Source: Candidatus Brocadiia bacterium
GTDB lineage: Bacteria > Planctomycetota > Brocadiia > SM23-32
Assembly (NCBI GenBank): GCA_046483385.1
Contig: JAWODG010000220.1
Location: forward strand, 1,029-65,028
DNA length: 64,000 nucleotides
Direction: 5' to 3'
Shown here: in pieces, positions 46,205 to 62,729 of the stretch
How positions within the stretch are numbered: position 1 is the first letter of the stretch
Layout of the letters: every line of letters starts with the position of its first letter
Translations under genes and position numbers: made by a program
The notes under the pieces: generated by a model
The model's database searches: none
What the model was told of the DNA's origin: nothing
Seen by the model: only the letters and a program-made list of their open reading frames with translations

Positions 46205-48406
46205 ATGCCCATGCAGGAGACGGGCCTCAGCTTCCGGCCTTACCTCAACGTCTGGATTCTGCTCGCCCTTGCCGTTATCCTGCTGGGGTTGGCCGTGCTG
46301 GCCTACCGACGCACCGGACGCCCCGTGGCGCGCCGCTACCGGCTGCTACTGCTGGGCCTGCGCTGCTCCGCCGTGCTCCTGCTTCTTGTTCTGCTGCTGC
46401 GTCCCGGCCTCGACACCGTGCAGTACGAGATCGTCAAGCGACCGCTGCTTCTGTTGATCGACGGCAGCAACTCGATGACGGGCATCAGCGACACGGCCTC
46501 GGGGGTGACCAGGCGGCAGGCGGTTGAGGAGCTGCTCGCCGAGTCCAGCGATGAGCTGGCCGACCTGCGGGCCGCCTACGATGTTCTGCAGATCGACTTC
46601 GCCCGCGGGCTCATCGAGTCCGACCTGCCCGAGCAGAGCCCGCAGCGCCGGAGCAGCGCCTACGGACTGGCCCTGCAACAGGCCGCCGCGGAGGTGGCCG
46701 GCGGGCAGGCGGATGCGCTCGTCGTCTTCGGCGACGGCTCTCACAACCACGGGCCGCCGGACCCGGTGGAGGTGGCCGCCGGGCTGGGCGAGCAAGGCAT
46801 CCCCGTCCACACCGTCGGCGTGGGGCAGGACGCCGCCACTGCTCAACTGCGCGACGTGAAGCTGGTCGAGGTGACCGCGCCCCGCTCGGTGCCCCTCTTC
46901 AGCCGGTTCCCGGTCAGGGCGGAGATACTCTGCCGGGGCGCTCAGGGGCAATCGGTCGACCTTCAACTGACCTACGCCGGCCGGGAGGTCCAGACCAAAA
47001 CCGTGCGCATATCGCACCCGGAAGAGACCGTACCGCTGGAGTTCGAAGTCGTGCCGGAGGAAGAAGGAGACTTCAAGCTGACCGTGACGGCCACCCCCCT
47101 GCCGGACGAACTGCTGGAGTCGAACAACGCCGCCAGTGCATTCGTGAAGGTCATAAGGGAAGGTCTGACGGTGGGGTACTTCGACGTGCTGAGGCCGGAG
47201 AGCAAATTCCTGGCCCGGGCCATGACGGGGGCTGAGCAGTTGCAGGCGCGCCGCGTTCTGGTGCTGCCGGGACGCAAGCTGCCCGAGCCGGCCACGGAGA
47301 TGGACAGATACGACGTGGTCGTGCTGGGCGATGTGCCGCCCGACGCCTTTCTGCCAAGCCGCATACTCGAACTGAAGCGCCGCATCCAGCAGGAGGGTAA
47401 AGGATTGGTGGTGCTGATGGGCCCGGACGCATGGCGCAGTGATGGCTGGGCCGACACCGCTCTGGCAGATGTGCTGCCGGTGCAGTTGGGTGCATCACCT
47501 CGATACGTGGAGGGGCAGCGGCGGTGGATCGTGGACGAGCGGCTCGCGGACCACCCGGCCGTCGCGCTGGAAGCAGACCCCCAGCAGGCTCTGCGCGCAT
47601 GGTCGCAGATGCCCCCGGTCAACGGCGTGTTCGTGGGACCGACGCCCCGCCGGGGGGCCACCGTGCCCGCCACGGACGCGGACGGCAATCCCCTGCTGGT
47701 GGTGCACCGGTCCGGCCAGGGGCGTGTGGCCTGCGTGCTGACCGACACGACGTTCCGCTGGTTCTTCACCGAACGCGAGACGCAGGATTACCATCGCCGG
47801 TTCTGGCGGCAGCTTCTGCTGTGGGCCTCCGGCCGGGCCGGAGAGGAGGAGACGCGCGTGCGCCTCGAGCTCAACAAGCGGCGCCTGCTGCTGGAAGAAC
47901 CCTTGACCCTGCAGGTAACCGTGCAGGAACCGGACGGGCAGCCTGTGCGAGACGCCACGGTAGAGGTGCAGGTGGAGACCCCGGAAGGCACCACGGAGTC
48001 GCTGGGGCCCGCCTTCTCACGCGAGCGGGGCGGCTACACCGACACCTATTCCCCGCCAATCGAGGGCGACTACACCGTCACGGCGCAGGCCCGGCGCGAA
48101 CAAGAGGTGCTGGGAAGCGACCGGGCGCTCTTCCGTGCCACCGGCGCCAACCCGGAGCTGGAAGACCCCATCGCCGACCTCAAACTGCTGCGCCGGATGT
48201 CGGCCGCCACCGAGGGCGCCGGCGGGCGTTATTACTCCTACCTGCAGGCAGGGGACCTGTTCCGCCGCCTGGCGGAAGCCGGCGAACCGCTGAAGCTGAC
48301 GACCCGCCGTCGGCGTGACATCTGGGACGACTGGCCCACCTTCCTCCTGCTGGCCGCCCTGCTGGCGGGCGAATGGACACTGAGAAAAAGGAAGGGGCTG
48401 ATATGA
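46205..48406 (+). CDS. Membrane protein with vWA-like and glutamine-amidotransferase-like domains
   Basis: Two N-terminal TMs, IDGSNSM MIDAS, GDGSHN, IPVHTVGVG, YDVVVLGDV, GQGRV..TFRW...RFWRQLLLW, C-terminal GEWTLRKRKGL. Confidence 0.75.
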   Translation: MPMQETGLSFRPYLNVWILLALAVILLGLAVLAYRRTGRPVARRYRLLLLGLRCSAVLLLLVLLLRPGLDTVQYEIVKRPLLLLIDGSNSMTGISDTASGVTRRQAVEELLAESSDELADLRAAYDVLQIDFARGLIESDLPEQSPQRRSSAYGLALQQAAAEVAGGQADALVVFGDGSHNHGPPDPVEVAAGLGEQGIPVHTVGVGQDAATAQLRDVKLVEVTAPRSVPLFSRFPVRAEILCRGAQGQSVDLQLTYAGREVQTKTVRISHPEETVPLEFEVVPEEEGDFKLTVTATPLPDELLESNNAASAFVKVIREGLTVGYFDVLRPESKFLARAMTGAEQLQARRVLVLPGRKLPEPATEMDRYDVVVLGDVPPDAFLPSRILELKRRIQQEGKGLVVLMGPDAWRSDGWADTALADVLPVQLGASPRYVEGQRRWIVDERLADHPAVALEADPQQALRAWSQMPPVNGVFVGPTPRRGATVPATDADGNPLLVVHRSGQGRVACVLTDTTFRWFFTERETQDYHRRFWRQLLLWASGRAGEEETRVRLELNKRRLLLEEPLTLQVTVQEPDGQPVRDATVEVQVETPEGTTESLGPAFSRERGGYTDTYSPPIEGDYTVTAQARREQEVLGSDRALFRATGANPELEDPIADLKLLRRMSAATEGAGGRYYSYLQAGDLFRRLAEAGEPLKLTTRRRRDIWDDWPTFLLLAALLAGEWTLRKRKGLI

Positions 48407-48969
48407 GCCGCCGACGCGCCGTATTCCTGGATCGCGACGGGACGCTCATCGAGGACGTCGGCTACCTGAACCGGGCCGACCAGTTGCGAGTACTGCCGGG
48501 GGTGCCCGCTGCTTTGCGTGATTTGCGCGCGGCGGGGTTTCTGTTGATCGTGGTAACCAACCAGAGCGCCGTGGCCCGGGGATGGCTGACAGAGCCGAAG
48601 CTCTGCGCCATCAACCAGCGCCTGAACGCGATGCTGCGCGCGGAGGGGGCCGGACTGGACGCCTTCTACTGCTGTCCGCACCTGCCCGATGGAACCGTCC
48701 GGCGGTACACGCACGAGTGCGAGTGCCGCAAGCCTCGGCCGGGGCTGCTGCTCAAAGCAGCGGACGAATGGGGTATCGATCTTGAGCGTTCCTACGCCGT
48801 GGGGGATTCGGAGCGCGACGTGGTGGCCGGCAACCGCACGGGGTGCCACACCATCCTGATAGCGGAAGGTTCGACCGGCTTGCCGGACAGCGCGGCCGAC
48901 GAGTGTGCGGCCGACCTGGCGGAGGCGGCGCACCTGATTCTGCGGAGAGAGGGTCGCGAATTCGACTGA
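48403..48969 (+). CDS. gmhB: D-glycero-D-manno-heptose 1,7-bisphosphate phosphatase (HAD)
   Basis: AVFLDRDGTL, VVTNQS.VARG, CPHLP..CECRKPRPG, VGDSERD. Confidence 0.9.
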   Translation: MSRRRAVFLDRDGTLIEDVGYLNRADQLRVLPGVPAALRDLRAAGFLLIVVTNQSAVARGWLTEPKLCAINQRLNAMLRAEGAGLDAFYCCPHLPDGTVRRYTHECECRKPRPGLLLKAADEWGIDLERSYAVGDSERDVVAGNRTGCHTILIAEGSTGLPDSAADECAADLAEAAHLILRREGREFD

Positions 48970-48972
48970 TGC

Positions 48973-50778
48973 TCAACGGTACGACGGCTGGGGCTTCATG
49001 GTGGGGTCCTTCATGAAGCTCTCGTCGATGGTCTCCATCTGGATGGGGGCTCTGTCCATATCCTCGACCTCGGCCAGCATCTCCTCGACCTTCTCCCGAC
49101 CGACCTCGGCCACCAGTTGGGACCTCAGGTTGTCGTGGACTTCATCCGGGATTCGCCCGACGCGCCCCGCCAGTATGTCCACCATGGCCGCCTGCTTAAT
49201 CTCATTAACGCGGATCAGACCGCGCAGGTTGTCGTGTTCCTCGGGATCGAACCTTTCTGCAAAGACGCGGGCCTCCTGCTCGATGGCGGCGGCCTTGTCC
49301 AACTCGCCGTATCCGCGGTAGAGCAGCGAACGCACCAGGAATCCGTAGGTCATCCGGCGTGCCTGGCTGAAGGTCATGGAAGCTGTGTGCTCTTCGAGTT
49401 GGTCCTCCAAGAAAGCATCGTAGGTCCACTTTCCCATCTTCTCGGGGAACTCCTCTTTGAGCAGATGGAAGTACTCGCGCGATTTCTCGTTGTCGCCCAT
49501 GAAGTGGAACTCGATAACACCCCGGATGAGGAAATTGCCGTAGCCAGTGATGACGCCCCCCGTATAGCGCGATCCCCAGGTCTCCAGGGCCCGCTGGAAG
49601 AACTTAAGAGCGGCGTCGGCGAAACGGTAGTCGGTCCCCCAGGTATAAAGCACGTTGCCTTCCGAATCGGACAGCATGCGGCCGTGGGCCACCAGGTTCT
49701 GCAGCGAAGCGTAGATGACCCGCTCAAGCTGCACGCGCTCATATTCGTATATCGTCTCCTTGTCGCCGTAGTGCTCGTCCAGATCCTCACGCGCGTAAGG
49801 CTCGGGCAGCCCGAACTCATCCACGGCCTTGTAAAGGCGCTCCTCCCTTGCCGCCAGTTTCTCCAGGCCTCTGGAAGCCCAGTAGATGGCGTGGGGGAAG
49901 GGACTGCGCCAGTCGAAGGGGCCGTACCGGTCCATCAGCGTGAGCATGTACTGCGGGTCCATCGAATACTCTTTTCTGAGTTCGCGGGCCCGGGCGAAGG
50001 CGGCCACTTTGTCCAACGCCTCACGGTTGAACGGCTGCTCGACAATCTTACGCACTTCCTCCCGCACGTTCTCCCGGTCGCGGAAGAGCTTGAAGAAGCT
50101 CCCCACGATGTCGAAGCCGTATTGTGCACAGTCATTCACGAACCGTCTGACGTCATCGTCCCTGAGGAGCTCTTCGCGGGTCTCCGGCGCCTCGATGAAC
50201 TTGCGCAACGTTTCCCGGCTGCCCCCTCCACCGAACAGGACGTGCATCTCCTTGGCCAGTTCCCGCTTGTAGAACATGTGGGCGTAGTCGTCTTCCTGGC
50301 CGATCTTGTGCTGGATCATGAACGCCAGGCTGAAGTAGAGGTCCACCGCGTTGGGGTTGGCCGGTATGCCTTCGTCCCGAAGCAGCTCAATGCCGCTGCG
50401 CACCCAGGCCCACCGGTCAACCAGCCAGTCCACCTGGCTGCTCACGTTGTAGGCCATGTTCCAGCTCTGGATGTCCCACACTTCGGGGATGCGGGGAGCC
50501 AGCTTGCAGGCCCAATCGGCCAGTTGCACCAGTTCGAAGAAGCGGCCCTGCTGCTTGAGCGCCTCCATGCGAATCCACACCACGTCTATGATGATCCCGC
50601 GCGCCCAGCCCAGCACCTGGGTTGCCATGGCCAGCTCCGGGCTGATGCCCTTCACCGGCTCGTTGGACAAGTCGTATCTGCTGCGCATCTGCTGCATCGG
50701 CACGATGGCCATACTGGTTCCGACCAGCAGCGCGAGGGCGAGCAACGAGAGAAGCAGTCTTCTGATTCTTGTATGCAC
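48973..50778 (-). CDS. Conserved hypothetical membrane-anchored helical protein
   Basis: N-terminal TM/signal, LGWARGIIIDVVWIR, FFELVQLADW..KLAP, WNMAYNVS, GIELLRDEGIPANP, YGPFDWRSP..HAIYW; last gene of the ABC/SPFH operon. Confidence 0.8.
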   Translation of the reverse strand: MHTRIRRLLLSLLALALLVGTSMAIVPMQQMRSRYDLSNEPVKGISPELAMATQVLGWARGIIIDVVWIRMEALKQQGRFFELVQLADWACKLAPRIPEVWDIQSWNMAYNVSSQVDWLVDRWAWVRSGIELLRDEGIPANPNAVDLYFSLAFMIQHKIGQEDDYAHMFYKRELAKEMHVLFGGGGSRETLRKFIEAPETREELLRDDDVRRFVNDCAQYGFDIVGSFFKLFRDRENVREEVRKIVEQPFNREALDKVAAFARARELRKEYSMDPQYMLTLMDRYGPFDWRSPFPHAIYWASRGLEKLAAREERLYKAVDEFGLPEPYAREDLDEHYGDKETIYEYERVQLERVIYASLQNLVAHGRMLSDSEGNVLYTWGTDYRFADAALKFFQRALETWGSRYTGGVITGYGNFLIRGVIEFHFMGDNEKSREYFHLLKEEFPEKMGKWTYDAFLEDQLEEHTASMTFSQARRMTYGFLVRSLLYRGYGELDKAAAIEQEARVFAERFDPEEHDNLRGLIRVNEIKQAAMVDILAGRVGRIPDEVHDNLRSQLVAEVGREKVEEMLAEVEDMDRAPIQMETIDESFMKDPTMKPQPSYR

Positions 50779-50797
50779 TGTTGTATCGGCCTCCGGC

Positions 50798-52498
50798 TCA
50801 CACGATTAGGCGGGCCAGTTCCCTGCGGGTGTAGAAGTAAAAGGCGATTCCCATGGCGATGCCGCCCTTGATGAACAGCAACACGGCGCTGGATTCGGCG
50901 ACGCGACCCGCCGAAACCATCCGCCCGTTCACCAGATCTCCCAACGGGTTGAAGCTGCCGAAATTGGGCATCACCGCCACCACCGCGCCCGCGAACAGTC
51001 TCCATGCCTGGTCCAGGTAGACCGTGAACGTGGTGAGCTTCGCGTAGATGTTGGGCTCCACGAAGTTACTGTGGAACCAGGACGCCAGCATGCCCCCCAC
51101 GAACAGACAGAAGACAACCAGACTGGCCACCGGGAAACTGAACAGCGAACCGGCCATCAGCCCCAGCGCCGCCAGCAGCCCCACGTGGAACATGATCATG
51201 ACGAGCGATCTGTAATAGTTGGGCAGAAAGCCCTCCTCCTTCTGCAGCACCTCGATGGGACTGTCGACGTCAAAAGCCACGGTGCCGGGCGTCATACTCT
51301 CGAACGCCAGATACAGCGTGCCGTCTCGCTGGACGAATCGCCCCGGGATTGCGATCTCGTGGAAACGGTTGCTCTGCCAGCCGCCCGGCGGAGAAGCCAC
51401 GCGGAAGGAGGTGCGGTGGAGTTCGTACCGGGGTTCCTCCTGCCCGGCATTGCCTTCCTTCTCCACCATGATCAGCGGGTAAAATCGCCCCACGGTGCGC
51501 GGTGCGCCAAAGGCGAAGGGCCTGAACCTGACCTGCAGGGGATCACGGTTCTCGGGCGTGCGCTGCTCCTGGGGGTCCAGCCCGGAAAAACGCCACAGGA
51601 TGCGCGGACGCTCCGGCGTTACGCTCTGGCTCTGCTGCTGCTTCTCCTTGATGAGACGCTGCCGGTAGCTGTGCACCGCCATTGGTCTCTCTTGTTGCTC
51701 CAGCCATTCACGCGTCTTGCGTTCAATCTCCTCGTCGGGGCCCGGCAGGGGCGCCTGCACGGCTTTGCGGGCGGTGAACACCTCCTGCTCGATCCGCTGC
51801 CGCTCCGCGACGGCCAGCTGCTTCTCCTCCTCGGTCATCGTGCTGTAGTCCGGCTCCCGCACCATGTAGCGCACCAGCCCGTACGTAGCGCCGGTCATCA
51901 CGGCCAGCGACGCTGCGCACAGTATGAACACGCCGAACCACTTGCCCAGCAGGAACTGCCACCGGTGAAGTGGTTTCGTATCCGTCACGTTAACATGCTG
52001 CCGCTCCACCTCCGAACAGATGCTGGCCGTAGTGAGGAATATGGCAACCAGCGAAAGCAGCACCAGCGCAAGCGACAACGAGTAGAGCAGCACCAGTTGC
52101 ACCTGGCTTTTCAGGCTCCCCTCCGTTTTGAGAACGAAGGGCAGGGATGGCATCAGAACGATGAAGAAGAGGAAAAGGACGACGACCACCTTACGGTTCA
52201 TGGCCTCCATGATCAGCTTCCGCGCGACGGCCCAGATGGGCTCCCAGTGACGCAGGATCACATAGACCGCCACTCCGACGCCTAACAGACACAGCATCGC
52301 GGCTGCTGTCGTGGTCCAGTGGATGCCGAGGGCCCGCACGGCCGCGCCCGGGTCCTCGCCCAGCGTGACGAGGTATTTGTAGGCCGACCATGCGATCTGC
52401 ACCACCAGAGGCACCAGCGCCAGCAGGAACAAACCGAGCAGGATCTCCGGAACACGGCGCCGGAACCACTCCCAGACCTGGCTAATCTTGTCTCTCAT
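50798..52498 (-). CDS. ABC transporter permease (ABC-2 type) with large extracytoplasmic loop
   Basis: Multiple TMs, SICSEVERQ....DTKPLHRWQFLLGKWFG, C-terminal YFYTRREL. Confidence 0.85.
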   Translation of the reverse strand: MRDKISQVWEWFRRRVPEILLGLFLLALVPLVVQIAWSAYKYLVTLGEDPGAAVRALGIHWTTTAAAMLCLLGVGVAVYVILRHWEPIWAVARKLIMEAMNRKVVVVLFLFFIVLMPSLPFVLKTEGSLKSQVQLVLLYSLSLALVLLSLVAIFLTTASICSEVERQHVNVTDTKPLHRWQFLLGKWFGVFILCAASLAVMTGATYGLVRYMVREPDYSTMTEEEKQLAVAERQRIEQEVFTARKAVQAPLPGPDEEIERKTREWLEQQERPMAVHSYRQRLIKEKQQQSQSVTPERPRILWRFSGLDPQEQRTPENRDPLQVRFRPFAFGAPRTVGRFYPLIMVEKEGNAGQEEPRYELHRTSFRVASPPGGWQSNRFHEIAIPGRFVQRDGTLYLAFESMTPGTVAFDVDSPIEVLQKEEGFLPNYYRSLVMIMFHVGLLAALGLMAGSLFSFPVASLVVFCLFVGGMLASWFHSNFVEPNIYAKLTTFTVYLDQAWRLFAGAVVAVMPNFGSFNPLGDLVNGRMVSAGRVAESSAVLLFIKGGIAMGIAFYFYTRRELARLIV

Positions 52499-53720
52499 CG
52501 TCCTCCGCGTCCCGGCTCGAATCGTCCATAAGTTCGCTCAACACGTCGTCGCGCACGCCGGCTGAAGGTTCGACCGCGGTCCGGGGCTCCTCCTCGCCGG
52601 TCTCCTGTTCGGCGGGCTCCTCCTCGCCTGTCTTTTCGGATGCTCCCATCCGCATGAGGTCTTCGATCAGTTCCCTGTCGCCCTCCACGGGCAGGGCGGA
52701 GGCGGGCTCCTCGGCCGTTTCGGCGCCCGCTTGCCTCTCCGCTTCCAGACCGGCGCTGACCAGGTCCTCGACCAGCTTCTCGCCCTCACCCTCGCGTTCG
52801 CCCAGGAATGCAGCCGCCCCCGCACCGACCTCGGCACCCGCGGTGGCCAGGCGCTCCCGGCGTGCCTCCTGCACAACCTGCAGGAAGAACTCCTCCAGCC
52901 GCCGCGTGGGCGCGCTGACCTCCACGGGGCCGTCCTGCCCCACGGCTTTGCGGATGGCGGCCACAACTTCCTCCACCGCGCCCGCCTCCATGCGGGGAGC
53001 CCGAATCTGAGTCATCTCCTCGGCGGTCAGAAGCTCCTCGACGGTGCCCAACGCACGTCGCTTGCCTCCGTAGAGGATGCAGATCCGGTCGCAGATTTCC
53101 TGCACGTCGGCCAGCAGGTGACTGCAGAGGAAAACCGTCTTGCCCCGATCGCGCAGGGTCAGGATCAGGTCCTTCATCTCCCGGGCGCCCACCGGGTCCA
53201 GGCCCGTTGTCGGTTCATCCAGTATCAGCAGGTCGGGGTCGTTTATGAGCGACTGGGCCAGCCCTATCCGCCGCGCCATGCCCTTGGAGAACTCGCCCAG
53301 GGGCCGGCGGCGCGCCCGCTTCAGTCCCACCATGTCGATGAGCGCCTCCGTGCGCCGTTCCCGCTCCTTGGGAGCGAGTCCGAAGAGCCGTCCGAAGAAG
53401 TCCAATGTCTCCTCGGCGTTCAGGTACGAGTACAGGTGGGACTCCTCCGGCATGTAGCCGATGCGCTTCTTGATGTCCACGTCCCGCGGGCCTTTGCCGA
53501 ACAGGCGGATGGCGCCCCGCGTGGGGAACAACAGCCCCAGCATCATCCGCACCGTGGTGGTCTTTCCGGACCCGTTGGGGCCCAGAAGGCCGAACACCTC
53601 GCCCTGCTTGACCTCCAGGTTCAGGCCGTCGACGGCCTTAACGCGTTCGCGCCCCCAGAAGCCCCGGAACACCTTGGTCAGCTCGATAAGCTCCAGGACG
53701 GTCTCATTGGTCACTGGCAT
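52482..53720 (-). CDS. ABC transporter ATP-binding protein with acidic C-terminal extension
   Basis: GPNGSGKTT, FSKGMARR, LILDEPTTGLDP, CSHLL. Confidence 0.95.
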   Translation of the reverse strand: MPVTNETVLELIELTKVFRGFWGRERVKAVDGLNLEVKQGEVFGLLGPNGSGKTTTVRMMLGLLFPTRGAIRLFGKGPRDVDIKKRIGYMPEESHLYSYLNAEETLDFFGRLFGLAPKERERRTEALIDMVGLKRARRRPLGEFSKGMARRIGLAQSLINDPDLLILDEPTTGLDPVGAREMKDLILTLRDRGKTVFLCSHLLADVQEICDRICILYGGKRRALGTVEELLTAEEMTQIRAPRMEAGAVEEVVAAIRKAVGQDGPVEVSAPTRRLEEFFLQVVQEARRERLATAGAEVGAGAAAFLGEREGEGEKLVEDLVSAGLEAERQAGAETAEEPASALPVEGDRELIEDLMRMGASEKTGEEEPAEQETGEEEPRTAVEPSAGVRDDVLSELMDDSSRDAEDDERQD

Positions 53721-53731
53721 AAAAGGTCACC

Positions 53732-55708
53732 TCAAGCGGCAACTGGAACTGGTTTGCTCTCGTCAACGGTCGTCCCTGAGTACGGCGACAGGTTTTCGCC
53801 AAACCGGACGAGCCGTGCGCTGTTGAAGATCACGATAAACGAACCCACGTTGTGCAGGATGGCCGCCATCACGGGCGTCAGCAGGTTCATGCTGGCCAGC
53901 ACGAGTCCCCCGATGACGAAAATGGCCGCGAAGATGAGGTTCTGCATGATCACCTTCCGCAGCCGTCGCGACAGCCGGACCAGGAACGGCAGGCGCCCCA
54001 GGTCCTCGGTCATCAGGGCAATCGAGGCGCTGTTGATGGCCACGTCGCTGCCAGCGGCGCCCATGGCGATACCCAGGTCGCCGGCGGCCAGTGCGGGCGC
54101 GTCGTTGACGCCGTCGCCAACCACGGCCACCGTATGGCCCTCCTCCCGCAGCATCTCCACCAACCGCAGCTTCTGTTCGGGCAGACACTCGCCCTGCACG
54201 TCGGTGCAGCCCAGTTCCGCAGCCACCTTTTTGGCTACGGGCCAGCGGTCTCCGGTCAGCAAGGATACCCTGCGCACGCCAAGTTCCTGCAATTCTCCGG
54301 TGGACTGCTGCGCCTCCGGCCGGGTGCGGTCTTCCAGGCCGATCCAGCCGATGCAGCGGCCGTTTTTGGCCACGTAAAGTGTGCTCATCGCACCCGTAGC
54401 CTCGCGGTGCTTCTCGCTGCGAATGCCGCCCAGGTCCACGCCGTGATCCTCCAGGAAGCCGGCCCGGCCCATGACGATTTCGTCCTCGCCCAGACGGCCG
54501 ACCACGCCTTTGCCGGGCGTCTCGCGGAAGTCCTGCACGTTCTTCAGCGCCACGTTGGCCTTACGGGCGACCTTGGTCACTGCCAGGGCCACCGGGTGCC
54601 GGGAGTGCTCCTCCACGCTGGCGGCGGCCTCCAGCAGTTCCACGCCTTCCACATCCTCGGCCGGCACCATGCGCGTAACCGTCAGTTCACCCGTCGTCAG
54701 AGTTCCCGTCTTGTCGAACACCATGGCGGTCACGTCCCCGGCGACCTCCAGATGGGCCACGTTCTTTATAAGGATACCCAGGCGGGCCGCGGCGGAGAGG
54801 CCGGCCACCATAGCCGTCGGAGTGGCCAGCACGAATGCGCACGGACAGGCGATGACCAGCACGGCGATGGAACGCTCCGGATCGCCGGTGAACACGCCCA
54901 CGATGACTGCAATCATCAGGACCACGGGGGTGTACCAGGCGGCGTAGCGGTCGATAAGCTGCATGAACTGCGTCTTGGTGCCCTCGGCGGCCAGTATCAG
55001 TCGTTTCACCTTGCCCAGGGTCGTATCCTCACCCACGCGGGTAACTTCCACTTCCACCGACCCGGTCAGGTTGTTGGTGCCGGCGAAGACCTCCTCGCCC
55101 TCCACCTTATCGGCGGGGACTGATTCACCGGTGATGGTGGCCTCGTCTATCGTGGTCTCGCCCGTGCGGATGAGGCCGTCGGCCGGAATCCGGTCGCCCG
55201 GCCGCACGCGCACCCGGTCGCCCGGTTTCAACTCGGAGACCGGCACTTCCTCTCCCGAGACCAGTTCCGCAGTGGGGGGAGTGAGCGTCATCAGCTTTTC
55301 GACCGACTCTCGGGCCCCGGCGGCCGTCTGCTCCTCGATGAGCGTGGCCAGCAGCATGAAGAACGCCACCAGCCCGGCCACTTTGTAGTCCCCCAGTGCG
55401 AAGGCTGCGATGACGGCGACCGCCACCAGCACCGTCATGTGCATGCGCCCGCGCCGCACTTCCTGCAGGGCGCCCATGATGATGGGCGTGGCCAGTATGA
55501 CGGCCCCTATAAACGCGCTGATGGCACCTATGGCCTCTTTATCGGGGAAAAGGACATAGTGCGCCAGGTAGGCGTTCAGCACTATGACGAAACCGATGAA
55601 GGTAACGACGAGCCGGCTTTGAACCGAGCCGACGTGCTCGTGGTCCAGTCCCTGGGAATGCGATGTCGCGTGGTCAGACACTGTCTTTATCCTCCTATTC
55701 GATGCCAT
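53732..55708 (-). CDS. Heavy-metal-type (P1B) P-type ATPase
   Basis: TGES, IACPCA, DKTGTLT, SRHP, LLTGD, GDGVNDAPALA; short His-containing N-terminus and no CxxC metal-binding domain. Confidence 0.95.
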   Translation of the reverse strand: MASNRRIKTVSDHATSHSQGLDHEHVGSVQSRLVVTFIGFVIVLNAYLAHYVLFPDKEAIGAISAFIGAVILATPIIMGALQEVRRGRMHMTVLVAVAVIAAFALGDYKVAGLVAFFMLLATLIEEQTAAGARESVEKLMTLTPPTAELVSGEEVPVSELKPGDRVRVRPGDRIPADGLIRTGETTIDEATITGESVPADKVEGEEVFAGTNNLTGSVEVEVTRVGEDTTLGKVKRLILAAEGTKTQFMQLIDRYAAWYTPVVLMIAVIVGVFTGDPERSIAVLVIACPCAFVLATPTAMVAGLSAAARLGILIKNVAHLEVAGDVTAMVFDKTGTLTTGELTVTRMVPAEDVEGVELLEAAASVEEHSRHPVALAVTKVARKANVALKNVQDFRETPGKGVVGRLGEDEIVMGRAGFLEDHGVDLGGIRSEKHREATGAMSTLYVAKNGRCIGWIGLEDRTRPEAQQSTGELQELGVRRVSLLTGDRWPVAKKVAAELGCTDVQGECLPEQKLRLVEMLREEGHTVAVVGDGVNDAPALAAGDLGIAMGAAGSDVAINSASIALMTEDLGRLPFLVRLSRRLRKVIMQNLIFAAIFVIGGLVLASMNLLTPVMAAILHNVGSFIVIFNSARLVRFGENLSPYSGTTVDESKPVPVAA

Positions 55709-55728
55709 CGCCGGGGCGACCGCAATCC

Positions 55729-56895
55729 TTAGCGTTCTCGCCGCGCTCCGCTTGGCTGTCGCGGCGGTTGCCGGTTGAACATCAGGCGTAGTTCACGTTC
55801 GGTGGCGCCCCCGGACCGGTGCAGCACGAAGCCGCCGGGTGATTGGTCCATCACGGCCTCAATCGTCCGGGCATAATATCTGTCCAGCAGGATCCGCCGC
55901 ACCTCGGGGGACTTCCGGTAGACGGGCAACAGTTGTTTGAGGCTCTCAGCGTCGGCCCGCACGTTGCGCACCAGCCGCTCAGCGTAGCCTCGGGCGGCGC
56001 CTTTTATCTCGGCGGCACGCGCCCTGGCGTTGTTGAGTATACGGCTGGCCTCCGTTTCGCCTTCGCGCTCCAACGTATTGCGCAGACTGTAAGCGTTCTG
56101 GGCCCTGTCAAAGGCAGCCCTCACGGCGCCGGGTTCGCTGGGATTCTTCACCTTTTCCATTTCGATGGCCTCAACGGCCACAATCTCCACTCCCAACGGA
56201 TGCCCCGCACCCTCCTGGAATCGCTCCATCCGAGCGCGCAGATCCTGTTCGATTCGGCTGAACAGATTCGTCCTGTTCAGCACCTCGGCGACGCTCATGG
56301 TCCCCACCACCTTCGAGGTCGCGCCGCGCAGCATCTGTCGCAACAACTCCACGGGGTCTTCAAGGCCGAACCGATAGGCCATGGCGCCCTCCACGTCGCT
56401 CGGCACATTGTAGCGGGTCCTCAGCCGCAGATGTACTAAATTCATGTCGCCGGTCAGAACATAGCCGTCCTGCCGGATATCCAGCGAACGGACGGCGCGC
56501 ACGGCCCCGTCCTCACCCGGTGTCCAGAAGGCTCTATCCAGGTCCAACACCTTCTCATCGGTGGAAATGATGTGGACCTTCTCCCACGGCCATCGGAAAT
56601 GCAGCCCGCTGCCGGGCAGCATCACCCATTTGCCGCGAACCCTCACCAGCTTACCGAAGCGCGTTTTGAAACGCACTTCGGAAGGCCTGACGGTGAAGAC
56701 ACCGGCCAGCAGATAACCGGCGACCAGCACGATGATGACCAGTTTCAGAAACCGGAAACTGGTCTTAAGGGCGCTGGCCAGGGCCTGACTGCCGGCGTCC
56801 TCCGGTTCCTGCTCGGGCTCAGGTTGTTCCATGGCAAGCTGTTCGGGCTGCTCCGGTCCCTCTCGCTGGTCTGCAGGGTAGTTTTCTTCGCCCAT
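55729..56895 (-). CDS. SPFH/band-7 protein, HflK-like
   Basis: TM, FTVRPSEV...RFGK, GLHFRWPWE, LTGDMNLV, V.AAFD.AQ.A, A.GYAER.V. Confidence 0.88.
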   Translation of the reverse strand: MGEENYPADQREGPEQPEQLAMEQPEPEQEPEDAGSQALASALKTSFRFLKLVIIVLVAGYLLAGVFTVRPSEVRFKTRFGKLVRVRGKWVMLPGSGLHFRWPWEKVHIISTDEKVLDLDRAFWTPGEDGAVRAVRSLDIRQDGYVLTGDMNLVHLRLRTRYNVPSDVEGAMAYRFGLEDPVELLRQMLRGATSKVVGTMSVAEVLNRTNLFSRIEQDLRARMERFQEGAGHPLGVEIVAVEAIEMEKVKNPSEPGAVRAAFDRAQNAYSLRNTLEREGETEASRILNNARARAAEIKGAARGYAERLVRNVRADAESLKQLLPVYRKSPEVRRILLDRYYARTIEAVMDQSPGGFVLHRSGGATERELRLMFNRQPPRQPSGARRER

Positions 56896-56898
56896 CGC

Positions 56899-57975
56899 TC
56901 ACTCCTTATCCGCAGAGGCAAGGTCGGGGGCGGCGGCATCTTCCAGCCGGGCCATGTCCTCGGTGAGGGCTTCCACGTCCGACGGTCCTTCGATGCCCTG
57001 CTCGAACAGGGAGAAAGGCTCGGTCTGGGTGCTGACCACGAAGGTCAGCGGCCGGCCGTTGGCCGCGGCGTCCGCCGTGATCTTGCGGATTGCGTCCAGA
57101 CGACGCAGGAAGATAGCCAGCGTCTCGTCCTCCGCGAAGGTGTCGTAATAGGTGGCCGCGCGGGCCTCCGCGTCGGCACGGATATTCTTCGCCTCCGCCT
57201 CCGCCTCAGCCATCACCCGCTCGGCCTCTTCACGGGCCTCGGCTATCTTCGTACGCTTTATCCGATCACCTTCGGCCCTCAACCGCTCGGCCTGGGTATT
57301 GCGTTCTTCCTGCATGCGGGCAAACACCGCCTGCGTGGTGCTCTCCGGCAGGGCCACCCAGGCGATGCCGAGCGAACAGACCTCAATTCCATAGGACTGT
57401 TCCCGGCTGGCCAGGCTCCGCTTGACGCCTTCGAATATCTCCTGCTCGATTTTATCAAACTTGAGTTGCTCGGGCTGGGTGTTGACGATGTCGGCCAGCA
57501 CGTGGTTGCCGAAGACGGTCGCCGTCTGGTCGCTGAGGATGGTGCGCAGCCGCCGTGCGGCCACTCTCTCGTCGCTTTGCAGCGCCCGCTCGAACCCCAC
57601 CGGGTCCACGATGCGCCACGTGACATAGATGCGGGGCAACACCTGGTTGCCGTCCGGCAGTTGGATCTGCGTGAGTGGGCCGTCCAACGTCCGCACCCAC
57701 TGGTCGGCCTCCTTCACGGTGTCGATAGGATAGGGCCACTTGAAGAACCACCCGGCCTCATTGACCACCTCCACGTCCGGCGGCAGACCTTCCGGCACGG
57801 GCATCTCCGAGGCTTCAACCGTCTTGGTGACGGGCGGGCGGATAATCTTCTTCGGCTCGTTCCACCGGTAGAGAACCGCCGTCTTGTGGACCGGCACACT
57901 GAAGGTGACCAGCTTGACCAGAAGCACCAGGCAGACTCCGGCCACCACAACAATAGTCAGTTTGCTTTCCCTCAT
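56899..57975 (-). CDS. SPFH/band-7 protein, HflC-like
   Basis: TM, GWFFKWPYPI, TWRIVDP, YGIEV, AVFARMQEER..AERLRAEG, AEAEAEAKNIR. Confidence 0.9.
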   Translation of the reverse strand: MRESKLTIVVVAGVCLVLLVKLVTFSVPVHKTAVLYRWNEPKKIIRPPVTKTVEASEMPVPEGLPPDVEVVNEAGWFFKWPYPIDTVKEADQWVRTLDGPLTQIQLPDGNQVLPRIYVTWRIVDPVGFERALQSDERVAARRLRTILSDQTATVFGNHVLADIVNTQPEQLKFDKIEQEIFEGVKRSLASREQSYGIEVCSLGIAWVALPESTTQAVFARMQEERNTQAERLRAEGDRIKRTKIAEAREEAERVMAEAEAEAKNIRADAEARAATYYDTFAEDETLAIFLRRLDAIRKITADAAANGRPLTFVVSTQTEPFSLFEQGIEGPSDVEALTEDMARLEDAAAPDLASADKE

Positions 57976-57979
57976 CTAG

Positions 57980-60001
57980 TTATTCCTCCGCCGTATCGAG
58001 TTCCAACAGTTGCGGCCTGAGCCGCTCCTGCAGGTCGATGATGTTGACTTCATGTTCACTGACCGGCACAACGTAAACGGACTGTTGGCTCAACGCTGCC
58101 TCTATGCTGTCGAAGTAGCTGCGGAACAGATACACTCTTTCGGATTTCCTGTATGCTTCCAGCCGTTTTGTGAACTGGGCCTGTTCGGCTACGGCGTTCT
58201 GCACCAGGCGCGTGGCGTAGCCTCGGGCAGTGTGAACGGCCTCCCTGGCGCTCGCCAGGGCATCCTCCACCAACCTGGATTCCTCCACGTCGCCTTGCAG
58301 CACCAGGCTCTCGTGCTGCTGCAACGCCGTCACGACACCTTCGTAGGCGCCGGCCGTTTTCGCCGGGGGATGCACAGACGGTATGCCGGCGTAGACCACC
58401 TCCACTCCAAGGCCCGCTTCGTCGGCCGCCTCCTGCACCAGGCGCTGGAAAACCTCCACCGTGTGCCCCCTGTCCTGGGCAATCCAGCGCAGGAAGTCCT
58501 GCGAAGCCGCTATTCGGCATAGTGCCCTGTAGCTCAGCTTCTGCAGATGGTCCTCCAGTTGGCGTTGCCGATAGCAGTAGGTAAACGCCGCATCCTCATC
58601 CACCGTCCCGTCTTCTTTTCTGTTCAACCGGAAGTGCAGCATTCCTTTCAGGCGGGCCAGATTCACCTCCGGCGCCCGGGCCGCCACCGGCTCGCCAACC
58701 GGAGCGTCAGCTTCCTCGGCGGGCTCCACCGCTCCTGGCGCCTCGCCCTCCTCCAGTTCAGAACTCGGCACCACGAAGCTGATCTCGTATCCCTCGTCCG
58801 GGTCGATATGTCGCTCCCGCCAGAGAATGAACTCATCGTCCGAGCTTGTCGCCACGCGGGGATCGACCTCCCACGGCCTGCGTTCCTGCGCCTCCCTCAC
58901 TTTGCCCAGTTCCAGGCTCTGCACCGCGTAAGCGGGCACTGTCCGCGCCACGGAGATGGGCCAGGGCCACTTCAGATGGTAGCCCGGCTGGAACACGCTG
59001 GCCTTCAGTCCCCTCTGTGCGTCCGCCGGGCGCACAATTGGCTTGCCCAGCCTCTCAATGAAGGCCGCCTCGCTGGGATCCACCACCACCACGGCGCTCA
59101 GCAGCCAGAGGGAGAAAAGTTGAATAAGCAACAACGGGACAATGGCCCTTTCCATAAAGTGGTAGAACCACGTCTCCGACACCTTGAAGCCGAACTGGTA
59201 GTCCAGCGTGCTGGCCACTGTCTTGAGCACGCCGCCCGGCTCGGCGAACATCCCCAGCAGACGGCTGTCGTACGGCGGGCGCCTCTCCTGACCCGGCACC
59301 CGAGGGCGATAGATGTCCAGAATCAGGTTCAGAACAAGTTCGATTCCCACCAGCCCCATCATGGCCGGGATGACCCAGGCCACAATGGCGTGGCCCCACG
59401 TCATCCCGAAGTGGTAGAGCCCCATGGCGACGGCTATCAGCACGCAGGCGATCACGTTGCCCAGCAGATACCCTCCCGAGGCCCTCAGCAGGGCGAACTC
59501 CCGGCTCTCTGCCAGGCCCGCGGCGTATTTGCCTATCAGGAAGCCGACAAAACCTATCATCACCATGCCGACCGCCACGGTCAGCGGCTGCTGAACGGTC
59601 AACGCTTCCACGCCCAGCATGCTCATCGTCATCCGGTAGGTGAAAAACAGCAGCGAGCCGCTAAGCAGTATGGTGATGACGGGGACGAAGTACTTCTCCA
59701 GCACGAGCAGGCTGCTGCTGGCCCGCATCGTGTCCAGCTCGGTCTCCTCGAAGATCTCCTCGCTAAGGCGGGTCTGCTTCAGCCGTTCCAGCTCTTCCCG
59801 TTCCTCCCGGGCCAGCCGGCGCTGCCGGCCATGCACCCACACGACGGCCCACACAAGGACGCCCGGCATCAAGTGCCACATCTCCGCGGTGACCGCCGCG
59901 CTCCGACTCTGCGTGCTCAGAATCCAGCACACCAACAGGAAGACGCCCTGCAGCATCAGGCCGAGCAGGGCTGTATATTCGAGTTTTTTGGGGCTAGCCA
60001 T
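57980..60001 (-). CDS. SPFH/band-7 protein (HflK-like) with multi-pass N-terminal membrane domain
   Basis: About 7 TMs, then AFIERLGKP, PGYHLKWPWPI, LGVEVV....VHPP..A.AYE.VV.A. Confidence 0.85.
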   Translation of the reverse strand: MASPKKLEYTALLGLMLQGVFLLVCWILSTQSRSAAVTAEMWHLMPGVLVWAVVWVHGRQRRLAREEREELERLKQTRLSEEIFEETELDTMRASSSLLVLEKYFVPVITILLSGSLLFFTYRMTMSMLGVEALTVQQPLTVAVGMVMIGFVGFLIGKYAAGLAESREFALLRASGGYLLGNVIACVLIAVAMGLYHFGMTWGHAIVAWVIPAMMGLVGIELVLNLILDIYRPRVPGQERRPPYDSRLLGMFAEPGGVLKTVASTLDYQFGFKVSETWFYHFMERAIVPLLLIQLFSLWLLSAVVVVDPSEAAFIERLGKPIVRPADAQRGLKASVFQPGYHLKWPWPISVARTVPAYAVQSLELGKVREAQERRPWEVDPRVATSSDDEFILWRERHIDPDEGYEISFVVPSSELEEGEAPGAVEPAEEADAPVGEPVAARAPEVNLARLKGMLHFRLNRKEDGTVDEDAAFTYCYRQRQLEDHLQKLSYRALCRIAASQDFLRWIAQDRGHTVEVFQRLVQEAADEAGLGVEVVYAGIPSVHPPAKTAGAYEGVVTALQQHESLVLQGDVEESRLVEDALASAREAVHTARGYATRLVQNAVAEQAQFTKRLEAYRKSERVYLFRSYFDSIEAALSQQSVYVVPVSEHEVNIIDLQERLRPQLLELDTAEE

Positions 60002-60069
60002 TTGCCAGGTTTTCCTCCGTTGTTACACAATTTTGCTACGTTCGAGGCTCACGGGATCGCTCACCATGG

Positions 60070-61095
60070 TCAGATGACCTCGCGCCGCTCGAACAGGCAG
60101 GCCGCAAGCGCCACCATGGTGGCGCAGTAACCCAGGGCGTACAACGCCGTCATCCCCACGTACGGCCAGGGGATGTATGGCACCTCGTGCATCAACTTGT
60201 CGCCCACCCAGAATACATAGAAATTCGGCACGATTCTGAGGGCCACCCAGGCCGCCGCCGACCGCGCCGCAAATTGCCCGAAGAGAAACTGCGACGTCAT
60301 TCCCACGAAAAAAACCATCAGGCAGATGATCACATTCAGCACGACGTTCAGCCGAGTGGAGATGGCCAGCGCCACCGACGTCATCACCCACACTCCGAAC
60401 CAGACCAGCACCGCCGCTATGGCCACCTGTCCCATGTTCCGCTCGGCCATCACTTCCGGGAAAAGGTTGAACTCCCACTGCGGCCCAACGAGCATCAGGA
60501 CAACCAGAGCCACCACGTACAGGGGAAGCGCCGTCAGCAGCGCCGTAGAAGGAAAGCTTGAGCGGTAGAAATAGTTGGCGTACATCCCCACCGCCACCCC
60601 GATAAGCGCAGGCCCCACCTGCAGCAAGAAGGCCGGCCAATCCATCGTGAAGCTCGCCGCGCTCGGCACCCCTATGCGGAGCGTGGTCATCAGCACAGCG
60701 CTCAGAAGGAAAAGACCCACACCCATGGCCATGGTGACGCCCAGGAATTTTGCCATCACGAAAACCAGCCGCCCCACCGGCTTGCTCAGGATGGCGCCGA
60801 CGGTCTGGGTCTCTATTTCACGGCTGATGGTCTGGGTCACGCTCAATACGGCCAGCACGACGCCGAACAGCAGGATGGTGGCCAACCCCATGTCCACCAT
60901 GAGCTTCTCGTCCTCGACCATGCTGAACATGGTGATGGCGGGGGAAAGGCCGATCAGCACCATCCCCATGACCACAAGGAGGGCGTAGACCGGTTGCCTG
61001 ATTATCTCGATGAACGAGTTCTTGGCGATGGTCCAGAGGCCGGACAGCAAGATTCTTCCTTTCTGGCGCGCGAACTGCGGGAGGGCACACTCCAC
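60070..61095 (-). CDS. ABC transporter permease (ABC-2 type)
   Basis: IAKNSFIEIIRQP, ISREIETQTVGAILSKPVGR..FVMAKFLG, C-terminal LFERREV. Confidence 0.88.
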   Translation of the reverse strand: MECALPQFARQKGRILLSGLWTIAKNSFIEIIRQPVYALLVVMGMVLIGLSPAITMFSMVEDEKLMVDMGLATILLFGVVLAVLSVTQTISREIETQTVGAILSKPVGRLVFVMAKFLGVTMAMGVGLFLLSAVLMTTLRIGVPSAASFTMDWPAFLLQVGPALIGVAVGMYANYFYRSSFPSTALLTALPLYVVALVVLMLVGPQWEFNLFPEVMAERNMGQVAIAAVLVWFGVWVMTSVALAISTRLNVVLNVIICLMVFFVGMTSQFLFGQFAARSAAAWVALRIVPNFYVFWVGDKLMHEVPYIPWPYVGMTALYALGYCATMVALAACLFERREVI

Positions 61096-61162: not shown

Positions 61163-62521
61163 TCAGCGCTGGAGCATGTCCAGCACTTCGTCGGGGGCGA
61201 CCTCGGCCCCACGGCGCCGCAGCCGATCGCACACATTCTCGGCCGGATAGGGAGCGGCGCCGATCCGCCGGAAAAACTCATTGCGGGCCCGCGCGTCATC
61301 TCCAAACCAGTTCTCGGCCCACTCGCCCGTGTAGCCGACCCCGGCCGTGGTCTTAAGCAGCGTATGGCCCCACGCGACGTGGGCACCGTCCAGGAAGGTC
61401 TGCCGGTATGGTTCGAGTGCGGGCGCCGAGAAAGTGTCCACGAACTTCTGGCCGTACTTGTTCATCTCGGTCCCCACCAGCACGGGCATGTCCAGCGCGC
61501 CGGCCGCATCGAGCGCCGCGTGCAGGTTCCGCACTTTGACGGCCTTCTCCTCCGGATCATCGAGGTTCCAGTTGCGGTCGGGGATGATGGTTATGGTGGG
61601 AATCCCCTTGTCGCGCAGGAACCCGAAGTGCTCCATCGGGTCGGCCTCTCCGGCCCGGGTGCCGTCCAGCCAACAGCCGCTGGGAATGCTCCCGCAGTCA
61701 AGCGTCATACGCACGACGTCGTCCAGCAAGGGGAAACTGCCCTCTTCGGGCGGCGCGTAGCCCACACCACCGTGCTTCATCAGGCGCGCGCGGATCAGCT
61801 TCTTCAGTTCCACCACGTCACCGATCAGCTCGCGTACGCTATCCTCCGGCTCCTCCAGCTTCTCGGACCAGAAGGCCACCAGCTCGTCTTCATCAGGATA
61901 GACCTCCCGGGCCTTCAGGTCGTAGGCGACCAGCATGTGGCGCTCGGTGGCGTTGCCCGCGGGCGTCAGGGGTAGCACGTCCTGGTCGTAGTCAATGCGG
62001 ACGGTGTCAAGGTACTCGTTAATGCGCTGCGTCTTGCCTCGGTTCCGCCGCTGGGCGCATTCGGACATCGAATCGAGCGTGGCCGCCGCCTCCGTCCCCG
62101 GCTCCGGCAGACCGGTGAAACCCGTGCCGCTCAGGTAGAAAACGCCCGGTTCGTGGGGGGAGTTGATCTCCTTGTCCGCATATTCGGGGATGAACACGCG
62201 GCTCTCGAACCCTCCGGAGGCCTTCAGATTCACCGTCCGGGCCGCCCGGAGGAACTCCTCCACCCCGTCAAGAACGTCGAAATCAACGACGGCCGCCGCC
62301 TCCAGCCCGTAGCGGTGGGCCTCCCACGCCAGACGGCTCGGGGAGTAGCCGTAAGCGTTGTAGGAGAAGAAGGTGTGACAGTGCATGTTGACCTCGGGGC
62401 GCCGCTCCGGATGCTGGTCGGGAGGGGCCGCCTGCACCAGCCGCCCAAGCGCCCGGCGGCGCTCCTCGGCGTCGAAACTGTCCAGACTCTCCACCAGTTC
62501 TTCGTCGATGTCATCGGCCAT
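61163..62521 (-). CDS. PHP-domain-like protein with atypical motifs
   Basis: VNMHCHTFFSY, AAVVDFDVLDG, GFESRV, GNATERH, GTEMN; N-terminal HEAT-like helix. Confidence 0.7.
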   Translation of the reverse strand: MADDIDEELVESLDSFDAEERRRALGRLVQAAPPDQHPERRPEVNMHCHTFFSYNAYGYSPSRLAWEAHRYGLEAAAVVDFDVLDGVEEFLRAARTVNLKASGGFESRVFIPEYADKEINSPHEPGVFYLSGTGFTGLPEPGTEAAATLDSMSECAQRRNRGKTQRINEYLDTVRIDYDQDVLPLTPAGNATERHMLVAYDLKAREVYPDEDELVAFWSEKLEEPEDSVRELIGDVVELKKLIRARLMKHGGVGYAPPEEGSFPLLDDVVRMTLDCGSIPSGCWLDGTRAGEADPMEHFGFLRDKGIPTITIIPDRNWNLDDPEEKAVKVRNLHAALDAAGALDMPVLVGTEMNKYGQKFVDTFSAPALEPYRQTFLDGAHVAWGHTLLKTTAGVGYTGEWAENWFGDDARARNEFFRRIGAAPYPAENVCDRLRRRGAEVAPDEVLDMLQR

Positions 62522-62677
62522 GGGGACACCACCAGCGCAGGGAAGCAAGGAGGAAGCAGAAAGGCGACTCTATTGCAGGGCCCGCCCCGAATCAAGTGAA
62601 ACGCCCGCGTTGCGACCCGCCCCTTCCCGCACTCCTCCCTGCGTGCGCGCCACCGGCTCCGGCGGGACTGCCACTTG

Positions 62678-62707
62678 TTGACACGCGCCGTCTGGTTGCC
62701 CTATATT
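62678..62707 (+). promoter_or_regulatory. sigma70-type promoter of ldh
   Basis: TTGACA, 18-bp spacer, TATATT. Confidence 0.55.
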
Positions 62708-62729
62708 CAAAGCGAGGGGAGAAACCACC

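Follow-up and report, generated by a model that had tools for sequence, protein, structure and literature searches.

What do three SPFH proteins do in an operon that also encodes a heavy-metal pump and an ABC exporter? The question arises from a stretch of 64,000 nucleotides (the window) of a Candidatus Brocadiia bacterium. The window is contig C175 of a metagenome-assembled genome (MAG) in 241 contigs, and coordinates given without a locus name are positions in it. It contains eight genes of interest, g1 to g8 (Table 1). They encode a permease (g1), three SPFH proteins (g2 to g4), a P1B-type ATPase (g5), an ABC ATPase (g6), a second permease (g7) and a 601-aa helical protein (g8). The explanation that we consider probable is that the locus is the Planctomycetota-Verrucomicrobiota-Chlamydiota (PVC) version of a widespread, undescribed module. 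In this module, an HflK/C-type SPFH assembly would be dedicated to a divalent-metal efflux transporter. The assembly would serve the efflux pump instead of, or besides, FtsH.

Exporters fused to HflK-type SPFH subunits

Two loci from another family of the same class (L038 and L039) encode a P1B::SPFH protein of 1023-1024 aa, followed by an HflC-type and an HflK-type gene. The protein contains E1-E2_ATPase, Hydrolase and Band_7 domains. A linker and one transmembrane (TM) helix lie between the pump and the SPFH part. The two partner proteins in L038 exceed the HflC and HflK equivalog cut-offs (174.8 versus 134.4 and 197 versus 159.4).

A database search with the fused SPFH half retrieved 61 proteins. 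Fifty of them were P1B::SPFH proteins longer than 900 aa, with source labels that include Planctomycetota (Thermoguttaceae and Gemmataceae), Armatimonadota and Lentisphaeria. Another five (~600 aa) contained a full Cation_efflux (CDF) domain together with Band_7 (E 1e-21 to 1e-25). These CDF::SPFH fusions retain both CDF site motifs. A search with their alignment found 29 metagenome loci, 27 of which show the SPFH part. A C-type gene comes next in 23 of the 27, and the remaining four show nothing past the SPFH part. A K-type gene follows the C-type gene in 14 loci, two of them matched via the fused-SPFH query instead of the K-type query. The surroundings of these loci otherwise vary and are mutually unrelated.

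Further families show the same succession. L150, L151 and L152 encode P1B::SPFH, then C-type, then K-type proteins. L153 to L155, from three more families, have the order X-SPFH, C, K, P1B, where X is an N-terminal domain without a family assignment. These layouts give, as the minimal conserved unit, an exporter-bearing K-type SPFH subunit, a C-type subunit and a K-type subunit, in this order, with the exporter fused or encoded directly after the trio. The pump is the best candidate client because P1B::SPFH and CDF::SPFH fusions precede the same HflC-/HflK-type genes.

All three SPFH proteins of the window score above the Pfam gathering cut-off for Band_7 of 23.6 bits (g2, g3 and g4 with 32.1, 58.0 and 63.1 bits), which places them in the SPFH family. 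They score below the equivalog cut-offs of canonical HflK and HflC. For HflK (TIGR01933, cut-off 159.4), g2 scores 73.4 and g4 112.1 bits. For HflC (TIGR01932, cut-off 134.4), g3 scores 85.5 bits. Contig C197 of the same genome encodes an adjacent canonical hflC (264.8 bits) and hflK (225.2 bits), both above these cut-offs. The canonical pair lies elsewhere, and the trio g2 to g4 is therefore an extra, specialised set. The comparison supports a dedicated, conserved trio distinct from the canonical HflK/HflC of the genome.

FtsH-type peptidase domains are encoded at three other loci of the genome (C50, C134 and C140). The search for a separate canonical hflKC-ftsH, which the earlier note on this DNA had proposed, was thus answered by the C197 pair and these three loci. 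The same note had called the operon FtsH-less. It is right that ftsH lies at other loci. The label carries no information, with canonical hflKC elsewhere in the genome and because canonical hflKC operons, to our knowledge, lack ftsH too.

The canonical hflK of C197 (L120:1791-2627, minus strand) has an open frame of 278-279 aa, yet its first ATG/GTG/TTG gives just 199 aa. Its model match begins at profile position 62. N-terminal truncation or another start is possible.

The three FtsH loci bear on an alternative explanation. The trio could consist of FtsH-modulating HflK/C paralogues, and the pump would be a substrate of proteolysis or be under their quality control. Instead of a platform for the pump, the cage would be a gate that decides whether FtsH reaches the pump, or reaches mis-metallated proteins of the membrane. 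A substrate role fails to explain why, in many lineages, the scaffold subunit is fused in frame to exporters of two unrelated families, and the genome already has its canonical pair. No ftsH was found in the examined loci, where the queries were the window's proteins and ftsH itself was not among them. These points set the explanation back, although the hflC and hflK models align with g3 and g4 over almost their whole length, the L038 fusion partners pass the equivalog cut-offs, and HflKC is known to enclose FtsH (accessible part of PMC12005517). We judge it unlikely.

The SPFH domains were placed in a tree, a quick version with 71 rows made with the careful search unfinished. A C-type clade, which holds canonical HflC and g3, is separate from a K-type superclade, which holds g2 and g4. 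The superclade contains a g2-type group (support 99), a g4-type group (support 98) and a third group. In the third group, canonical HflK stands with the K-type proteins that accompany the fusions and with a clade that unites every P1B- or CDF-fused domain (support 98). The quick tree leaves the branching order of the three groups open. Every transporter-bearing domain is K-type, and its partners are one C-type and one K-type protein.

The best-known relative is the HflK/HflC-FtsH system of E. coli. Common to both are paired K and C subunits with one N-terminal TM helix each and a periplasmic SPFH/coiled-coil part. The present system has three paralogues instead of two, none of which reaches the equivalog cut-offs. 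A domain with a transporter fold is part of one K-type subunit, and the partner would be a metal exporter instead of a protease. The HflK-HflC cage is made up of 12 heterodimers, according to the accessible part of PMC12005517. One C-type and two K-type subunits per system therefore fit a ring of alternating C and K subunits, with either kind of K in the K positions. By analogy with that cage, such a ring may form here.

Several genes beside the fusion loci were recorded. L153:5719-7266 (plus strand), from a complete 7.4-Mb Planctomycetota genome, encodes an ArsP_1-type permease directly upstream of the X-SPFH gene and overlapping it. L128:5654-7646 (minus strand), on a metagenome contig, encodes a DarT-like ADP-ribosyltransferase and a Macro-domain protein (a DarTG-type toxin-antitoxin pair) just upstream of a CDF::SPFH module. 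L038:18416-19078 (minus strand) encodes a protein with a zinc ribbon and a bacterial PH domain directly upstream of P1B::SPFH. Two candidates were rejected. A P1B::ABC-ATPase fusion in L099 proved to be two open reading frames (ORFs) of 651 and 472 aa in the ORF list. The ABC ATPases upstream of CDF::SPFH loci are unrelated oligopeptide ABC genes and not parts of the module.

The N-terminal domain of g2 and conservation of the locus

The g2 protein contains six helices, its most conserved stretch, one TM helix and the SPFH/coiled-coil part, in this order. This topology was read, crudely, from hydropathy and the positive-inside rule. An AF2 model of the N-terminal domain had a pLDDT of 80.9. 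In VIA-align, the six best matches to the model were all CDF/ZnT structures, and the next fold reached Z <=9.8. The domain aligned with SLC30A10 (9kvx_B) at Z 16.2 and a root mean square deviation of 2.9 over 177 residues, and with ZnT3 (9jj1_A) at Z 15.1. Foldseek placed YiiP (8f6k) first (E 1.3e-3, TM-score 0.51/0.56), with ZnT1 next among the top matches.

Profiles gave a similar picture. An hhalign comparison of 114 g2 N-terminal domains with those of CDF::SPFH proteins gave Prob 89.8 and E 1.8e-6 over 220 columns, and it put the CDF motifs of TM2 and TM5 in register. Prob did not exceed 1.9 in control comparisons with reversed profiles, both permeases and the pump. The g2 homologue P0087 has a partial Cation_efflux match of 27.2 bits.

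The transport site of CDF proteins consists of H/D-x3-D twice, in TM2 and TM5. Three of its four ligands are replaced in g2. Among 33 sequences, H43 is kept in 17, D is changed to G47 in 30, H to Y178 in 27, and D to N182 in 20. The domain shares with CDF/SLC30 proteins (YiiP and ZnT) the membrane fold and a weak profile likeness at TM2 and TM5. It differs from them by the replaced ligands, the fusion to SPFH and the lack of a cytoplasmic C-terminal domain. From model and profiles, we read g2 residues 1-232 as a CDF-derived pseudo-transporter with a degenerate site. The earlier note had suggested that a ~7-TM extension of one SPFH subunit could be an adaptor. The polytopic extension is real; in place of a generic adaptor, we found a CDF-fold domain with lost ligands.

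The most conserved stretch (residues 229-282) reads YRPRV...YDSRLL...TLDYQFGF.VS.TWFY. TLDYQFGF and its neighbours are invariant columns in two g2 alignments (A1 and A5). The stretch is predicted to be cytoplasmic, between the CDF-like domain and the helix that anchors the SPFH part. The g2 family has 1959 database matches at E <=1e-3, all with generic names.

Relatives of g2 were sought in 41 genomes, including that of the window. Matches were found in 40 of them (E <=1e-3). They were full-length and g2-type in 32 of these, including 24 of the 25 genomes of its own family. Eighteen loci with a g2 homologue were fetched, and they represent four families within the window's class. The eight-gene order is present in 17 to 18 of them, wherever the contig reaches. 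Among these loci, SPFH identity falls to 22-30% while that of the pump stays at 52-56%. A search of 301 Planctomycetota genomes (>=85% complete) gave 76 with a g2 match at E <=1e-30.

Patterns from g2 residues 229-282 were then scanned over one genome per species. The scan retrieved 469 stretches that encode a g2 relative, and the locus counts below are from the best 80 of these 469. Each count is taken over the loci with room for the gene. The best 80 loci come from MAGs of Planctomycetota (Brocadiia, Phycisphaerae, Pirellulales and Planctomycetales), Verrucomicrobiota (Limisphaerales and Verrucomicrobiales) and Candidatus Auribacter. The C-type SPFH gene (g3) was found in 75 of 76 loci and the K-type gene (g4) in 71 of 72. 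The g1 gene immediately precedes the g2 homologue in 69 of 76 loci, 9 of which have it inverted. In L117, the pump gene lies upstream and is inverted. The co-occurrence across phyla that the earlier note had wanted to see is therefore present in Planctomycetota, Verrucomicrobiota and Auribacter. The arrangement is conserved far beyond chance.

These counts bear on an explanation in which the ABC-2 exporter and g8 are the core machine, which would export a lipid, glycan or lipoprotein destined for the PVC envelope. This exporter would be organised by the SPFH ring, and the P1B pump would be a passenger. The pump is kept more often (61/63 loci) than the ABC ATPase (53/60), the long permease (52/57) and g8 (43/50), and SPFH modules not of the PVC type have a fused exporter and no ABC system. 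The explanation would accord with the synteny of the ABC ATPase, long permease and g8 among PVC bacteria. It would also suit the resemblance of g6 to lipid-handling ABCA and DrrA/GldA-type ATPases, and the invariant Trp, Tyr, Asn and Arg of g8 could bind a glycan or headgroup. We hold it to be very improbable.

Another possibility is that the genes share only their regulation, in a regulon for metal or envelope stress packed into one operon, without building a joint complex. The SPFH proteins would then be general membrane stabilisers under metal stress. Stress functions often share operons, and an RND metal-efflux-type system in L118 and the ArsP_1-type permease of L153 have the look of a metal-resistance island. 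Such a regulon accounts poorly for a gene order that is fixed across phyla at 22-35% protein identity. The exporter::SPFH fusions, the strict make-up of one C-type and two K-type subunits, and a degenerate transporter domain under strong conservation also speak against it. We regard it as improbable.

Two observations concern individual loci. In a Limisphaerales MAG, L118:16447-21366 (plus strand) encodes an AcrB-family RND pump and a CusB/HlyD_D23 adaptor in the usual place of the ABC genes. In L032/L067 (G010, on a 729-kb contig), the g2 homologue is in three pieces with an internal TGA, and only 474 aa remain of the pump ORF. Either the operon is decaying or the assembly contains frameshift errors.

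The pump, the ABC part and the proposed mechanism

The g5 protein contains the P-type motifs DKTGT, TGES and GDGxNDxP and a CPC in M4, which make it a P1B-type ATPase. It has no HMA domain. It has a His-rich N-terminal tail, common among its orthologues, and a conserved His in M6 (62 sequences). We compared it with the solved pumps ZntA (4umv), sCoaT (7qbz) and CopA (3rfu and 7r0g). The scores were similar (CopA 340, sCoaT 303 and ZntA 285 bits).

The signature of P1B-1 pumps (CopA) is YN in M5 and MxxSS in M6. In the alignment with 3rfu, g5 has FV in M5 where CopA has YN, and H..GS in M6 where CopA has M..SS. It thus lacks the P1B-1 signature for Cu(I). P1B-4 pumps of the sCoaT type have SPC in M4 and HEGxT in M6, as seen in the 7qbz alignment. 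Here g5 has CPC instead of SPC and shares only the His of HEGST, so that it also lacks the P1B-4 signature. That M6 His aligns with the His of the sCoaT HEGST. The ADTG-type Asp of the genome's ZntA-like paralogue is absent from g5. Set beside P1B-2, P1B-4 and CopA pumps, g5 shares the P1B core and a CPC in M4.

All 50 fused pumps have the CPC and the M6 His, with His-Gln in nearly all of the listed motif windows. In a FastTree phylogeny, 60 adjacent pumps form one clade (0.95) and the 50 fused pumps another (0.993). Both clades group with the ZntA-like paralogue (0.984), apart from the CopA/CopB-like paralogues. The CDF fusions and the ZntA-like grouping therefore suggest a divalent metal.

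The g6 protein has an ABC_tran match (E 3.2e-30). It scores 217.7 bits with the drrA subfamily model, below its cut-off; of the solved bacterial chains, NosF comes closest (171.6 bits). The g7 permease is extended by two N-terminal helices and contains a ~230-aa insert. Its ESM Atlas neighbours carry PF12679 or an automatic NosY-type name. For g1, no solved relative was found by sequence. Judged from family and position, g6 may pair with the two unlike permeases g1 and g7 as an ABC-2 exporter.

The nearest known counterpart of this part is NosDFY(L). The likeness is that g6 is closest to NosF, g1 and g7 lie in or near PF12679, the family of NosY, and both systems have a link to metal. The present cluster has two unlike permeases, and its periplasmic partner would be a TPR-like solenoid. 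Pfam and NCBIfam scans found no NosD- or NosL-like protein among the eight products or their neighbours, and the cluster thus departs from NosDFY(L).

The g8 protein has no Pfam or NCBIfam match, relaxed thresholds included. Its AF2 model (pLDDT 85.6) is an N-terminally anchored, all-alpha solenoid. Structure searches with this model gave only generic TPR matches (Foldseek E >=1.6e-3, VIA Z <=10.8). Its ESM Atlas neighbours are all named 'hypothetical protein' and come from Planctomycetota and Verrucomicrobiota. The g8 protein is probably periplasmic. A 650-aa structural neighbour cluster found in Verrucomicrobiota (TM 0.59/0.55) has FKBP_N and FKBP_C domains besides a part that resembles g8, a hint of a connection with protein folding in the periplasm. 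Beside the fused exporter::SPFH versions, the ABC ATPase, the long permease and g8 are absent. We regard the ABC part and g8 as additions of the PVC lineage.

We propose the following mechanism for an SPFH assembly dedicated to an efflux pump. It would consist of one C-type subunit (g3), an ordinary K-type subunit (g4) and a K-type subunit whose membrane anchor was swapped for an exporter. The exporter part is an intact CDF or a whole P1B pump in other lineages and would be a degenerate CDF fold in g2 here. The working pump would here be g5, encoded straight after the SPFH trio. On the periplasmic face, g3 would alternate with g4 or g2 in an HflK/C-like ring. Through the g2 subunit, perhaps by way of its invariant cytoplasmic motif, the pump may come to lie inside or against the membrane patch that the ring encloses. 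The ring may control the surroundings of the pump, its turnover or the destination of the exported ions. The ABC-2 system (g1, g6 and g7) and g8 would probably act periplasmically in the same process. The data show the gene content, the synteny, the fusions, the CDF fold with its degenerate site and the subtype features of the pump. From them we infer ring formation, stoichiometry, physical contact, metal identity and the role of the ABC part.

The earlier note had proposed an SPFH cage with the P-type pump and/or the ABC complex as its client instead of a protease. Synteny and fusions support the part of this claim that concerns a dedicated trio and the pump. For the ABC complex as a client, the evidence is limited to synteny within PVC bacteria, and the complex is missing beside the fused versions and from 7 of 60 loci with room for it. 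No evidence was found for envelope remodelling, the other function that the note had named.

A bolder version supposes a closed, periplasm-facing SPFH chamber over the exporters, with ions from the P1B pump, or from the CDF in other lineages, released into a confined nanocompartment and not into the bulk periplasm. From there, client proteins would receive the ions, or the TPR-like protein and the ABC-2 system, as a NosFY-like mechanotransducer, would move them outward. Docking or metal sensing, via the invariant cytoplasmic motif, would be the task of the degenerate CDF domain in g2. We think this version unlikely. If true, the chamber would be a new job for SPFH cages, in compartmentalised metal export or metallation.

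The dedicated SPFH-pump assembly has its nearest precedent in stomatin and solute carriers. Stomatin cups associate with solute carriers in human cells, according to the accessible part of a 2026 paper (PMC13724742). The likeness is an SPFH oligomer that fences a membrane patch and is associated with transporters. As described in that part, stomatin is a homo-16-mer at the cytosolic leaflet, with partners found by proteomics. The present assembly would be a K/C-type hetero-oligomer, with a partner suggested by fusions and operon. A literature search (full text, with subscription-only papers outside its scope) returned no paper that links SPFH proteins with P1B or CDF transporters. In the accessible text of the prokaryotic SPFH operon survey of Hinderhofer 2009 (PMC2636767), a term search did not find ATPase, ABC or transporter. 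The roles of bacterial SPFH cages beyond gating FtsH are an open question (accessible part of PMC12005517).

The proposed assembly would matter in three respects. These would be natural cages with the client written in the genes, either fused to a scaffold subunit or adjoining it. The relation of scaffold and client is therefore directly testable. The assembly would be an unnoticed organisational layer for metal efflux by P1B and CDF transporters. It would also place several conserved 'hypothetical' PVC proteins (g1, g7, g8 and the g2 family) in a functional context for the first time.

Several observations weigh against the proposed assembly. The locus counts are from the best 80 of 469 loci, and related genomes are not independent samples. 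Four loci (L070, L077, L106 and L118) have no ABC ATPase, long permease or g8 after the pump. In L075, nothing, not even the pump, was seen after the C-type gene. In L080 and L116, no ABC ATPase was detected, which brings the loci without it to 7 of 60. A full-length g2-type match that includes the N-terminal domain was found in only ~50 of the 301 sampled Planctomycetota genomes. The Pfam Cation_efflux model gave no match to the g2 of the window, even at E <=5. Because the tree leaves the relation of the g2-type group to the fused clade open, g2 is possibly not a direct descendant of a CDF::SPFH fusion. We know of no classical P1B subgroup that the M4/M5/M6 signature of g5 fits. The outgroup of the P1B tree was only four paralogues from the same genome. 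The MAG of the window is 89% complete with 6.8% contamination. Finally, binding between the SPFH proteins and the pump is suggested by sequence, and no physical interaction was shown. A complex prediction for g5 with g2 residues 1-310 gave 0.07 and 0.01 against a mark of 0.32. It was made without controls and weighs neither way.

The operon and its surroundings

The ORF list contains g1 to g8 as eight co-directional ORFs between 61095 and 48973 (Table 1). The spacers from g1 to g8 are 68, 4, 3, 20, 11, -17 (an overlap) and 19 bp. The ORF coordinates agree with the earlier description of eight packed minus-strand genes with gaps of ~3-70 bp or overlaps. The Pfam and NCBIfam scans likewise confirmed the order permease, three SPFH proteins, P-type ATPase, ABC ATPase, permease and 601-aa protein. 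The true start of g1 is possibly a few codons further downstream.

Table 1. Genes of the operon, parts of g2 and neighbouring genes, with positions in the window
Feature	Position	Strand	Length (aa)	Description
g1	60070-61095	-	341	Polytopic, ABC-2-type permease-like; PF12679 (ABC2_membrane_2), 29.3 bits (cut-off 27.2)
g2	57980-60001	-	673	HflK-type SPFH subunit; Band_7, hflK model positions 76-244
g2 residues 1-232	59306-60001	-		Six-helix domain, read as a CDF-like pseudo-transporter
g2 residues 229-282	59156-59317	-		Most conserved stretch of g2
g3	56899-57975	-	358	HflC-type SPFH protein, single N-terminal TM helix; Band_7, closest model hflC
g4	55729-56895	-	388	HflK-type SPFH protein, single TM helix; Band_7, closest model hflK
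g5	53732-55708	-	658	P1B-type heavy-metal ATPase; TIGR01525, 545.7 bits (cut-off 346)
g6	52482-53720	-	412	ABC ATPase of the ABC-2 (DrrA/NosF/ABCA-like) kind, acidic C-terminal tail
g7	50798-52498	-	566	Long ABC-2-type permease; PF12679, 26.2 bits (under the cut-off of 27.2)
g8	48973-50778	-	601	Membrane-anchored, all-alpha TPR-like solenoid (model); family: none
PHP-domain gene	61163-62548	-	461	Weak PF02811 match
Gene without family	62592-63494	-	300	
VWA gene	46205-48406	+	733	VWA and GATase1-like membrane protein
GmhB-type gene	48373-48969	+		GmhB-type heptose bisphosphate phosphatase

A scan of the operon for promoters and terminators gave counts at the level of shuffled sequence (4 versus 2.1 and 12 versus 10.1). 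Logan contigs from two metatranscriptome libraries match parts of g2 to g8 with 0-2 differences. One of them (55675-55918) bridges the junction of g4 and g5. These contigs give weak RNA support for the operon: they cannot prove a single transcript, such libraries may hold DNA, and the uncovered parts are uninformative.

Two co-directional genes lie upstream of the operon. The PHP-domain gene is 67 bp upstream of g1, and the 300-aa gene without a family is upstream of the PHP-domain gene. Their synteny is restricted to the family (54-77% and 48-60% identity) and does not extend to distant relatives. At the other end, the VWA/GATase1-like gene and the GmhB-type gene converge on the operon. The position of these two genes is kept in most close relatives.

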